DNA of 64,000 nucleotides, taken from Euglena gracilis. Its lineage: Eukaryota. Positions within the stretch are counted from its first letter, which is position 1. Each line of letters begins with the position of its first letter. A program made the position numbers and the translations under genes. The DNA is taken from NCBI GenBank assembly GCA_039621445.1, contig CP154954.1, forward strand, positions 21,650,954 through 21,714,953. Reading direction: 5' to 3'. A model generated the notes under the pieces. It searched no databases and was not told where the DNA came from. It saw only the letters and a list, made by a program, of their open reading frames with translations. This document shows positions 47,501 through 53,500 of the stretch, piece by piece.

Positions 47501-50500
47501 ATTCAAAAAAGAAAACAATGGTATGCTATTGATGATGCTTGGGGACGCAATAATCGCCAAAATACAATTTTTCTGCATGTTTTTTTTCCAGTCACCAATT
47601 TGAACCGTCCTTTGGTTGTGATTCGGGGGGGGGGGTTGTTTATGTTGTTGTTGTTTGGCTGCCCACACAGGGGCACCCCGAGGGCACTGTTGGGTTGCAC
47701 GTGACGGTGAAGCGCCTCGCAGGCGACCCTGACCTGTACGTGTCCACCCGCAACAGGTCCCTTGCGTCAGGGTTTGGCATGGTTTCTTTAGTTCTTTTAA
47801 ACACAACTCTCCTGTGGGAGGTGTTTGAAAAGATTTTTTCACCAAAAGGTCCAAAATTGATCCCTTTATATGGAACCCTCTCAGCACTGATGCAATACTG
47901 ATAGAGTCATAGTTTTCTCGGGGGTGAGTGTTCCATTAAGACATTGAGGGTGTGGAACCCAGAACGTCAACCTGGATTTTACAAGGCAAGGCAAAATGGG
48001 TCAAAAAGGGGCTGCTGGGGCAAAGAATCGACATTATACATAATTTACAGTTTTGGGGTCTTTTTTTTTTTTATTTTTATTTTTTTTAATTTTTGGCACT
48101 CTTGCAGACAGCCATCGCGGGATGACAACGAGTGGGCAAGGAATGAAGCAGTAGGTGACATCCAGGCAGTCTTTGTATGGGGCACTGCGAAACCCCCCAG
48201 AGATCCTCAGATCATCATTTTTTCAAATTTTTCTCAGAAACACAAAAAGCATGTTGCTTTTGTCGAACACTCCAACGAAACTACAAGAAACAAAAATATG
48301 TGAAAATTATGAAATCCCAGCACCTCCCCCATCAGTTCTTTGTGTATGTTTTCTCCGTCTTTTGGATGAATTGCTCTGGCGGATGGTCAATTTCAAGCAC
48401 AAATTTGACCAACTTTGATACGGACAGATTTTGTTTTGTGTTGTTTTGTTTGGGTTTGTGGCAGAAGAGAAACGCTGGGAGGTACAATTTTCCAGATAAT
48501 CTTTGCAGAAAGGATTTTTGTTTCAAAGCAAAACAAATTCCGAATATCGATATTTCCCACATTTTCCGTCCTGATTGTATATGATGCTGTGATGCCTTGC
48601 AGCATTATCAATCTCTCAATCTGACCGACAAGTGACAAGTGGACGAATTTTTTTTTTCAGTTATCAAGTAGAACGACGTGCTATTTTTGTTTCAGGATTA
48701 AAGGTATAAATGCCTTCAGGATTTAGGTGTGAATGTCGAAAGAATACCACCCGAAGGGAAGCATAGTGGCACCGTTGCAGTCCAGCATCAGTGGGGTAAT
48801 GTGGGAAGGCAACACAGCCCTCTCCCAATCTTATCCCCAAAGCAGCTGCCTGTTGACAAAACACTGTTCGTGCCTCTACCGGTGCCAGAGCAGCTCTTCA
48901 TCGCCATCCACGCCTACCGGGTCCAGGCTCGGTATAGCATTTCCACGAGAGCAGGTGTACCATTTCCCCATCATTTGTTTCTATGTGCCTGATTGTTCAT
49001 GAGAAATGCATGCAATGTTGCATTATGGCATGAGGGAGGCAGCCGTCTGGATGTGTGCGTATGGTAGTTGTGTTGTGTGTGTGTTGTGTGTGTGTGGTGT
49101 GTGTTGTGTGTGTGTTGTGTGTGTTTTGTGTGTGTGTGTGTTGTGTGTTGTGTGTGTGTGTGTGTGTGTGTGTGTGTGTGGTGTGGTGTGTGTGTGTGTG
49201 TGTGTGTGTGTGTGTGTGTGTGTGTGTGTGTGTGTGTGTGTGTGTGTGTGTGTGTGTGTGTGTGTGTGTGTGTGTGTGTGTGTGTGTGTTGTGTGTGTGT
49301 GTGTGTGTGTGTGTGTGTGTTGTGTTGTGTGTGTGTGTGTGTGTGTGTGTGTGTTGTGTGTGTGTGTGTGTGTGTGTGTGTGTTGTGTGTGTGTGTGTGT
49401 TGTGTGTGTTGTGTGTGTGTGTGTGGTGTGTGTGTGTGTGTGTGTGTGTGTGTGTGTGTGTGTGTGTGTGTGTGTGTGTGTGTGTGTGTGTGTGTGTGTG
49501 TGTGTGTGTGTGTGTGTGTGTGTGTGTGTGTGTGTGTGTGTGTGTGTGTGTGTGCGCGCGCGCGCGCGTGTGTGTGGATTGGTTTGACGCTCAGGTGAGC
49601 GGGGCATTGGACAGCGGCTGGACACCACCGAAGCTACTGAGCCTATGGCGGAAACCACACTGTGCCCCAACCATGCCATTGCGCTGCACCACAAGACCAT
49701 TTCACCCTTCCCCTCTCCACCTGCCCAGTCGCCGACTTGGACAGCACATGAAAGTTATCCGGTGAACGTCCGACGAACAAAACCGAGTCATGGCACAAAG
49801 TGGGGTCCCCATACCACCCCCATACCCCATACCACCTCCATACCCCCCCCCTCCCCCCCCCATACCCCATACCCCCCCCCTCCCCCCCCCCATACCCCCC
49901 CATCCCCCCCCATACCCCCCCCATACCCCGAAAAAATTTTTTGCCCGAAAAAGTGTTTTTTGGCCCCCCGCACCAGGAAAACTTGTTTTTGCGCCGAATT
50001 TGAGTGTTTTTCGGTGTTTGGGTCCAAAACTGCGCTAAAAAACACGAAAAAAAAAAAAAAAAAATTTTGTCCGAAACCATGGTTTTTGGCCTCCCAGACC
50101 CGGAAAACCTGTTTTTGAGCCAAAAATGTTTTTGTGGGCAAATTGCGCGACGTATGAAACTGTTCGAGTGCCCGGGGGGGGGGGCTCCCGCCCCCCCCCC
50201 CCGGACCCCCCCCCCGCCACCAAAAATAATCTAATCTTTGTCTCCCGCCTTTTTTTGGGGGCAAACCCCGCAACGAATGAAACTGTTCGAGTGCCCGGGG
50301 GGGGGGGGCTCCCCCCCCCCCCACCCCCCCGCAAAAAAAATAAACCTCATGTTTGTCTCCGAAGTTATTTTGCGGACAAATAGCGCGATATATGAAATTT
50401 TTCCAGTGGCCCGGGGGGATGAGGGATTGCAGGATCTCCCTTTTTCAGCCAACCACATCAACAATATCCCCAAACACTATCCCACCATACCCCCCCATAC

Positions 50501-53500
50501 CCCCCATACCCCCCATGCCCCATACCCCATGCCCCATACCACCCCCATACCCCCCCATACCCCCCCCCCATACCACCCCCATACCACCCCCCCTACCACC
50601 CCCCGACCACCCCCATACCACCCCCATACCTCCCCCATACCACCCCCATACCCCAGGTATGGGGGCCCCACTTTGTGCCATATGTGACAAAACCTGTTCC
50701 CCCTCGAGCGGGTGGAGTCTGTGAAAGTGCATCTCCCCCTCCATGGCCAGTGAGGAGGTCGTTCAGCAACCTCATGGCCCCAACTGCCAGCGCCGGGTCC
50801 CCACCGCGGCGTTTGTGCTGCACAGCGCGCAGTGCGCCCGACGCAACGTTCGGTGTGGCTTCGTGTCCACGCGTTCTGCTTCCCCGACTCTGGGGAAAGC
50901 GACGACGGGCAACAGAAATGGGAGGAGGGCAACGGAACAGAATCGGCAATTTTTTTCCGTTTTGAAATTTCGGGTTCGGAACTATTTGTGAAGGGCGAAG
51001 GTCATGCCTTTTTCATGAGATAAACGTTGATACATGTTTGACCCCTCGCTCAGGTGTGCTCAGTGCGGCGCAGTGCAAGAAGTCGGCCCCGCCCACGAGA
51101 AGCACATGTACGCCGTGCACTCCCCGGTGGCGTGCCGCTGCGGGGCCCAGGTCCGGCGGTCCCACCCACCGAGCTGGGGCCCGGTTTGGAAAAAAAAAGT
51201 ACGGCCGATGTTGCGGCAAAAATGAAAAATTGCTCGGTAGGAATGTGTTCTTTGATGTTTTGGGTGCAGTGGGGGCATTGTTCTGTTAGACTAGGCAGGC
51301 AGGGATTCCTGGGGAGGATTGAAGATGAACAGCTTTTTCCATGGCGGAAATATCTGTGGTTTTCAGCGCCTCTGTTTGGGGCAGCCATTCGCCTCCCCCC
51401 TATGTCTATTGAACCCCTTGCCCAACGAACAGGGGGTGCCCAGACCGTCCAGGTTGTCATTTTTTACAGCAATACAAATGCCCATGCGGCCCATGCCCAA
51501 TGAACGTCCCCCCGTCTGGACCATCTGGATTGTCATTTTGGTGTTCGTTGGGCTCGGGGAGAAGGTCAGGATGTTTCCGCCTCCTTCCTCTTTTGTTGTC
51601 CCACCCCACCCGATTGTATTTCACACACCTGCCCCATAGCCCTCCACCGGCAGACAATGCACACTCCACTCAATTCCCCCTGGCCCACAGCTGGAGCCGG
51701 AGGCCATGGCCCTGCACCGGCAGTTCGAGTGCAAGTACCGCCTGCTGCCGTGTGTCTATTGCCCGCTGCAGGTCCACCCGACCCAGCTTGTTTTTTGTGT
51801 TGTGTTGCCTTTTGTTGTGCTGTGTTGCGGTGTGTCGTGTTTTATTCTTGCTGTGGTGTGGTGTGGCGTGGTGTGGCGTGGCGTGACGTGGCGTGGTGTG
51901 GTGTGGCGTGGTGTGGTGTGCTCTTGAATGGACCATTGATTGATTGGGACTGTTTATTTTATTTTATTTTATTTTATTTTATTTTTGTTTTATTTATTTA
52001 TTTAACCCCCCCAAATAATAACCCCCCCGGTTTATTATTTGGACACCCGAAGTCGGGGTCCGGGGGGGTTTATAATTTGGGGGGGGGTATTATTTGAGCA
52101 AAAATTTCGAAGTCAAAAATAGACCCGAAAACCCTCACTTTTGGTTCACAACTGGTCACTTTTTTTTGGCATTTTTGGGCTTTTTTTGAAAATTGGGTGC
52201 TTTTTTTGATATATTTTATTCACCAATTTGATCCATTTTGTGATTTTTTGCAACATTTTTGCAAATTTTTGACTCTTTTTTCCTTTTCCCTCACACCTGC
52301 CAGAGAGGGGGGTTATTATTTGGGCGGCCGAAGTCGGTCCTCAGGGGGGGGGGTATTTATTGGGGGGGGTATTTATTTTATTGTTTTCGGTGGTTTTGCT
52401 TGCGTCCAAGGAGGCATTCGTTTTCTCCGAACCTTTTGCTCACAAATCTCGACGAGGAACAATCACCATCATAGTGGCCATAATCTCTTTTCCACATGAG
52501 TTTTGAAAAGTCATTCAGCCTTCAAAACTGGGGACATTAAGTATTTGCACACCCCAGATTCTGTGGGTTTTGCCCAATCCCAGCCCCAAGGCTTTTGCCA
52601 GCCCATTGGTTGTATTGATGGTGTGCACACTGGCACAGCCCCACCCATGCAGCAGTAACCAGCTCTGTCACAGCGCAGTGTGGAAAACTGATACCAGCAT
52701 TGCGAGAACATAATTTGCAGTTTCCAGCCCCTCCCATAATCCCATCCAAATCCAGCCAAGTCAAGGGGGCAACTTGGTTCATACTTGGGGGGGGGGGCTG
52801 TTCCCCAACTGTCAACTTTGGACAATACAAGGTGTGTCTCCCCCTTGACCGCAAGGGGGTCTGGACCCCCCACCTGCCAAGGGGTTTTAAACCAAGGGGA
52901 GCACACGGGACCACCCAAGAAAATCGAATTTTTTGTTAGGCACTTTGTGACAAAAAAAAATTGGCAATTTTGACGCATTTTTGCCAAAAAATAAAGAGCC
53001 CAAACCGGCATTTTGGGTCGATTTGGGTGCTATAAAAGGTGCATTTGGGTGCAGAGTGCTTAAAAAAATGTTTAGCACTCTGCTTCTTGCTAGACCAAAA
53101 AAAACTGTCATTTTGGGGGGGGGGGCTGTCGAACCTTGGGTGGCACCCCTTGTAAATGTAGGCTGGCCAGGGAGTGGCCAGGACAACGTGGTCATTATAG
53201 GATTTTGATGGTCCGTTTCAATGTTTGGGGTGTGCAACGAATTGCTACTCTCTCACACTTGCCAACTATTCTGTTTGTGTTATTTTTTTTTGTATCTGTG
53301 TGTATTTGTGTATGTGTATTTGTTCATGTGTGTGTTTGTGTATGTGTGCACATATGCCCCGCGCCGCCGCTTGGGCAGATCTCGGCGGAGGACCGCCCGC
53401 AGCACCTCAGCGACTGCGGCAACCGGTCCGTGCGGTGCCGCCTCTGCCCGGCGACGTTCGTGCGGTGGCGCCTCAAGACGCACCTGGGGGAGGCCCACCA

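Follow-up and report, generated by a model that had tools for sequence, protein, structure and literature searches.

A precisely removed nonconventional intron with an intact 8-bp junction repeat in a Euglena gracilis zinc-finger gene, and the case for its origin by DNA insertion

The DNA analyzed here (the window) is a stretch of 64,000 nucleotides (nt) from Euglena gracilis (assembly GCA_039621445.1, contig CP154954.1, positions 21,650,954 to 21,714,953 of the forward strand; all coordinates below are positions within the window). It contains a small expressed gene whose first zinc finger is of the XAF1/TRAF type, and an intron sits between the two Cys codons of that finger, at a site marked by an 8-bp direct repeat, GCCCCAAC. 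The gene has four conventional GT-AG introns and one nonconventional intron, the latter being the subject of this account. Its parts and immediate surroundings are as follows.

49595..49668, + strand: exon part upstream of the intron (RNA pieces 49592-49663; frame analysis).
49664..49671, + strand: left copy of GCCCCAAC, of which the 3+5 register assigns the first 5 nt to the exon and the final 3 nt to the intron as its 5' spacer.
49669..50781, + strand: nonconventional intron, 1113 nt (RNA joint; register chosen by Euglena geometry).
49672..50776, + strand: insert between the repeat copies, 1105 bp, with CATG termini.
50777..50784, + strand: right copy of GCCCCAAC (sequence match to the left copy).
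50782..50852, + strand: exon part downstream of the intron, with the rest of the XAF1-type finger (N-C-x11-H-x3-C).

The CATG at each end of the insert (49672-75 and 50773-76) abuts its copy of GCCCCAAC directly. On the upstream side, the finger's first Cys is encoded at 49663-65, and the codons TGC CCC specify C-P; joining the exon parts gives C-P, N-C-Q-R-R-V..., that is, a complete CxxC-x11-H-x3-C finger. The 23 residues that follow the insert match Pfam PF23580 (Znf_XAF1_N) over profile positions 10-29 of 30 with an E value of 3.5e-5, a match that stays below the curated cut-off since the query is part of a finger only. Since these downstream residues match Znf_XAF1_N and the first Cys lies upstream, it is a zinc finger that the insert splits. 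The start codon is probably at 49645, as inferred from the reading frame.

Evidence for removal of the insert at the RNA level comes from two transcript-contig runs (X15 and X20) and one raw RNA-seq run (X21, of which about 5% was read), mapped together with one DNA run (X1) on 49580-51790. (That X15 and X20 are RNA is the guess of the tool, though both carry spliced exons only.) In each of the RNA sets 49663 is joined directly to 50777: 1113 nt are skipped, and 8 nt could be placed at either end. The joint is carried by one contig of depth 255 in X15, by one contig of depth 28 in X20, and by 6 reads with 6 different starts in X21, while a unique segment of the intron flank (50690-50763) has zero coverage in each of the three. 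Contigs of the DNA run pass from exon into insert at both sides (49580-49744 and 50687-50926), and none of them has the joined, empty-site form. The zinc-finger gene has two expressed haplotypes that differ at 49643, 50807, 51069, 51072, 51081, 51702 and 51750. Both of them appear in spliced RNA (C or T at 49643 and 50807 in X15 and X20), and both have the insert in DNA, the T haplotype in X1 and the C haplotype in the assembly. The pre-mRNA loses exactly the insert and one copy of GCCCCAAC, and the finger is restored.

Two explanations would dispense with splicing. The joined form might stem from an allele or paralogue in which the insert was never present, a suggestion to which the existence of two haplotypes, the mapping of a single DNA run and the capacity of contigs to drop rare variants lend some room; it is nevertheless very improbable, given that X1 yields no empty-site contig and that both haplotypes have the insert in DNA (X1, assembly) and lack it in RNA (X15, X20). 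Alternatively, the joint might be an artefact of template switching by reverse transcriptase between the 8-nt repeats, and direct repeats do favor such artefacts. This is scarcely credible here: the joined form is the sole form observed, it is found in the contig of the neighboring exons and at their depth in three independent sets, the unique intron flank has no coverage, and the joint restores a finger that Pfam recognizes. Absence of the joint from X1, splicing of both haplotypes and zero intron coverage together argue against the empty allele as well as the artefact, and for removal of an intron from RNA.

The repeat leaves the exact borders of this intron sliding over 9 registers: the mRNA specified by 49669-50781 follows equally from eight others (49664-50776 to 49672-50784). 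GT-AG, GC-AG or AT-AC borders are found in 0 of the 9 registers that the mRNA allows. The 8-mer GCCCCAAC is not rare in the window (8 matches, 8.09 expected) and non-repetitive exact 8-mer repeat pairs within 3 kb of each other are common (1642 pairs in the window), so that the repeat is informative only by lying exactly at the RNA-defined junction. What is uncommon is that degree of junction ambiguity: among random mock introns placed in the window, sliding over at least 8 nt has a probability of 0.0023, or 6.8e-4 when tandem-repeat cases are left out. A 25-nt similarity (72%) between the start of the insert and the downstream exon was judged to be due to chance, and Rfam at gathering thresholds gives no match in the window.

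A spliceosome of relaxed specificity, using noncanonical sites such as GC..TG, has been proposed for diplonemids and for Fritillaria (PMC12621601, PMC11282704; statements about published work refer, here and below, to the accessible parts of the papers cited), and GC..TG is in fact the label that read mapping gives to the ends of this joint. We consider this explanation improbable for the present intron: the transcript has four further introns, all with GT-AG borders, no register offers a polypyrimidine/AG acceptor, and the geometry is that of Euglena nonconventional introns.

The splicing code of the latter has been given as 5'-N3-CDG ... CH'G-N5-6|R (Nomura et al. 2025, PMC12501133), an experimentally defined geometry with a 3-nt spacer, a CA-led motif, a partner motif ending in TG, a 5- or 6-nt spacer and a downstream purine; among E. 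agilis nonconventional introns, 61.2% conform to its strict form and 38.8% do not. The most conserved positions are CA at +4,+5 and TG at -7,-6 (Milanowski et al. 2014, PMC3935182), a pyrimidine|purine pattern is seen at both junctions (PMC11282704), and the E. gracilis consensus at +3..+7 is CCAGG (PMC11170887). Nonconventional introns leave the transcript as circular RNA once the conventional introns are out (PMC6221363, PMC11282704), and in E. agilis "slidable" introns, those with direct repeats at their junctions, make up 84.4% of the total (PMC12501133). In the register 49669-50781 the sequence reads exon ...C, then AAC CATG ... CATG GCCCC, then exon A...; it has C49672 A49673 at +4,+5, T50775 G50776 at -7,-6, and C|A at both junctions. 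Its spacers of 3 and 5 nt and the purine of the downstream exon are as in the geometry of PMC12501133, and CCATG at +3..+7 resembles the consensus of PMC11170887. The intron shares with its class the lack of GT-AG borders, precise removal, the 3- and 5-nt spacers, the CA and TG positions, the downstream purine, junction-repeat slidability and the company of GT-AG introns in the same gene; it differs in its CATG...CATG termini (T:A at the third position), in its weak terminal pairing and in retaining a full 8-nt repeat. It belongs with the nonconventional (non-spliceosomal-type) introns of Euglena, as a well-preserved member of that known class.

A preliminary description of this DNA, made from its letters, had anticipated most of these points. 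The 8-bp repeat and the 1105-bp insert with CATG ends were found again where it had placed them, as was the absence of a GT-AG solution; its location of the insert inside a CxxC zinc finger is borne out by the Znf_XAF1_N match of the downstream residues; and its 3+5 register fits the published geometry (PMC12501133, PMC3935182). It had predicted that removing 49669-50781 would restore C-P, N-C and leave one repeat copy, and the RNA joint does so. Retention of both repeat copies in mRNA, which it had named as one observation that would contradict it, is not what the RNA contains: the joint has one copy only.

The insert itself is composite, comprising a 902-bp inverted-repeat element (49785-50686) nested in an outer part of ~203 bp.

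49777..49784, no strand assigned: left copy of ACAAAACC, the nested element's perfect 8-bp target-site duplication.
49785..50686, no strand assigned: nested non-autonomous transposon, 902 bp (inverted repeats, contig breakpoints, depth).
50687..50694, no strand assigned: right copy of ACAAAACC, the nested element's perfect 8-bp target-site duplication.

The nested element has 26-nt terminal inverted repeats (49790-49815 and 50656-50681) that are complementary at 25 of 26 positions (96%), and an interior of tandem units and C-rich repeats. Its ends are also the points at which many X1 contigs diverge (loose ends at 49785 and 50686/7), and this definition of the ends is independent of the duplication. 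On entering the element, X1 depth rises from ~40 to 1e4-3e5; copy numbers estimated from this depth are about a thousand or more for the element's ends, the inner tandem units being far commoner. The nested 902-bp element is thus a true high-copy transposon that inserted into an existing intron. (Elsewhere in the window, a long tandem array at 20650-22700 has units that look akin, by eye, to the ~126-bp units of the nested element at 49931-50124, a likeness noted in open-frame translations and in X1 loose ends at 50128.)

A second transposon family resident in the window is made up of MITEs (miniature inverted-repeat transposable elements), with five copies of ~300 bp that have ends CAGGCTG...CAGCCTG and internal palindromes rich in G/C runs.

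3453-3758: MITE copy.
5487-5780: MITE copy.
14282-14591: MITE copy.
44718-45027: MITE copy.
61168-61462: MITE copy.

Two of the copies are flanked by perfect 8/8 duplications, GTTCCAAG and ATCATGAC; a further flank, TCCTGACC, matches at 8/8 or 7/8 depending on register, another pair, ATCAGGCT/ATCCGGCC, matches at 6/8, and one copy is unreadable in this respect. The flanks do not look coding, and on that ground these MITEs appear to be plain DNA insertions. Read together with their duplication, the MITE ends match the splicing code exactly: the duplication's final 3 nt, then CAG ... CTG, then its initial 5 nt.

The outer part of the intron's insert can be considered against this background. As for a DNA transposon or MITE, its ends are abutted by a perfect (8/8) flanking duplication. 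The hAT and P superfamilies of DNA transposons make 8-bp duplications and have termini starting with CA; the 8-bp duplication and CA...TG termini here are similar, and no transposase is seen. Its own inverted ends, in turn, are perfect over 4 nt and match at 8 of 12 ungapped positions, which is not beyond chance. A transposon origin of the outer part is accordingly plausible but unproven, suggested by the 8/8 repeat, by the abutting CATG termini and by analogy.

Taken as a whole, the evidence makes it probable that this is a Euglena-type nonconventional intron that was born by an insertion with 8-bp duplication and was later invaded by a transposon. In the first step, a DNA piece of ~203 bp with CATG ends would have inserted into an exon, making an 8-bp target-site duplication; this step is modeled on the resident transposon families of this genome, which likewise make 8-bp duplications. 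In the second, the 902-bp high-copy transposon would have entered the intron with an 8-bp duplication of its own, leaving removal undisturbed. At the RNA level, with the ends paired as CCATG/CATGG, the cuts would fall 3 nt before the terminal CA and 5 nt after the terminal TG, and the exon would restart with a purine. Since 3 + 5 = 8, such removal takes out the element together with one copy of the 8-bp target duplication and is scarless.

Several results weigh against parts of this account. On the DNA side, a single run (X1) was mapped, out of 14 DNA runs that contain at least half of the sampled words. The outer ~203-bp part has no relative within the 64-kb window, and its depth in X1 is 38-90 vs 34-66 for the flanking exons, which is single-copy-like (at likeness of at least 95%), so that the outer part lacks the very feature that defines a transposon family. 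The strict CDG and CH'G triplets are absent; the motifs are CAT and ATG, with T:A rather than G:C as the third pair. Terminal pairing is no better than chance: the terminal duplex, a 5-bp helix (CCATG/CATGG) with scattered further pairs, has a predicted energy of -16.0 kcal/mol vs -11.7 +/- 3.1 for shuffles, and is matched by 91 of 1000 shuffles and 177 of 1000 window controls. When the intron is folded with the nested element removed, the structure of lowest energy leaves the ends unpaired (z = -1.1). Across the window, CA...TG inserts number 15 among the 1642 exact 8-mer pairs vs 8.8 expected, a weak excess. The further partial pairing of the ends noted in the preliminary description thus exists but does not rise above the level of shuffled sequence. 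Its phrase for the whole, a transposon insertion turned intron, holds for the intron removed from RNA and for the intact 8-bp repeat, and goes further than the evidence on the transposon nature of the outer insert, which is single-copy-like, has no relative in the window and has weak ends.

These same properties of the outer insert are in line with a nonconventional intron that arose instead by repair of a staggered double-strand break with filler DNA, the 8-nt repeat being a product of fill-in. Such repair has been proposed for intron 4 of E. agilis gapC, a nonconventional intron of recent gain with an 8-nt repeat (PMC4770533). Daphnia intron gains are another case for which it has been put forward, and the CA...TG ends could reflect selection only, unspliced insertions having been lost. 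Against it, the length of the repeat is that of the target duplications of at least two transposon families resident in the window and the ends of the insert meet the repeat in the register also seen for the resident elements, whereas break repair makes no particular prediction of 8 nt. Break repair is therefore an unlikely, though serious, explanation, and insertion with an 8-bp duplication is the reading adopted here.

Window-wide searches give little further guidance. Unfiltered scans for 8-bp repeats with inverted ends were swamped by microsatellites, and a filtered scan of the window found no difference in rate among repeat lengths 7 to 10. (The window has a ~1.4-kb tetranucleotide array, (CATA/CATG)n, at 25470-26870, and further long (GT)n/(CA)n tracts at ~35.8-36.9 kb, 37.9-38.7 kb and 41.9-42.4 kb.)

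The remaining introns of the gene are of the GT-AG type.

48955..49594, + strand: GT-AG intron with 6-nt junction repeat CAGGTG (a loose end before 49592 matches 48926-48951).
50853..51053, + strand: GT-AG intron with 6-nt junction repeat (X15, X20 and 12 reads in X21).
51151..51690, + strand: GT-AG intron with 3-nt junction repeat (X15, X20 and 9 reads in X21).
51772..53378, + strand: GT-AG intron (inferred) with 4-nt junction repeat (a loose end behind 51771 reads on from 53379).

Junction repeats of the five introns, in order along the gene, are 6, 8, 6, 3 and 4 nt vs a mean of 0.71 nt for mock introns; at the GT-AG introns, the CAG|GT consensus accounts for part of this excess. The intron at 48955-49594 is almost wholly a (GT)n microsatellite of ~500 bp with a short (GC)n tail, and is still cleanly spliced in all RNA sets. 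The gene's intron types, GTGT-type donor sites and (GT)n-filled intron are in keeping with a Euglena-like host (PMC11170887). In exon 0 (48733-48954) an open frame led by ATG runs on into exon 1 in a frame other than that of the zinc finger; it could be an upstream open frame or an untranslated leader. The last exon (55 amino acids) has no match among longer proteins at E <= 0.001.

A close published counterpart is gapC intron 4 of E. agilis strain ACOI 323, which is flanked by eight-nucleotide direct repeats, is absent in other strains, and has been interpreted as a recent gain attributed to double-strand-break repair (Milanowski et al. 2016, PMC4770533). Both are nonconventional introns with 8-nt flanking direct repeats; the gapC case rests on population evidence, whereas the present intron has no empty site in X1, contains a nested transposon and is found on two haplotypes. 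To call the latter the best single example of its kind, as had been done at the outset, overstates the case, the gapC repeat being already in print. An origin of nonconventional introns from MITEs, with duplication-like repeats at the junctions, has been proposed repeatedly for euglenids and diplonemids (PMC3935182, PMC11282704, PMC12621601), and inverted ends with duplication-like repeats at exon junctions are common to that proposal and to the present intron. The accessible parts of those three papers name no transposon family and no duplication length; here, in contrast, CAGG...CCTG MITEs with 8-bp duplications lie in the same window. Introners of Micromonas, Aureococcus and dinoflagellates provide precedent for transposon insertion with target duplication that yields an exactly removed intron (Huff et al. 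2016, as cited in PMC11170887; PMC11282704). They are spliceosomal GT-AG introns, one splice site coming from the element or from the duplication, and form high-copy families (PMC11170887, PMC11282704); the intron described here is neither GT-AG nor, as judged from the window and from X1 depth, a member of a high-copy family.

Taken alone, the intron at 49669-50781 is one further case of the class that makes up most Euglena introns. The most useful by-product of its analysis is that the 3+5 rule matches resident transposons that make 8-bp duplications, and it may be that 3 + 5 = 8 is no coincidence. We tentatively suggest, in the knowledge that the idea could well prove wrong, that the 3- and 5-nt spacers of the code are the two parts of an 8-bp target-site duplication, and that nonconventional splicing can be thought of as "precise excision" carried out on RNA and fitted to one class of DNA transposon, that with CA(G)...(C)TG ends and 8-bp duplications. 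(Neither the 3+5 = 8 link nor a transposon family that matches it came up in literature searches or in the accessible parts of the papers cited.) An intact 8-nt repeat, a register that matches the 3+5 rule, and 8-bp-duplicating transposons with matching ends in the same 64 kb make the hypothesis of transposon origin concretely testable. If it is true, the window shows both states: free CAGG...CCTG MITEs outside exons, and a spliced exon insertion with its duplication intact.

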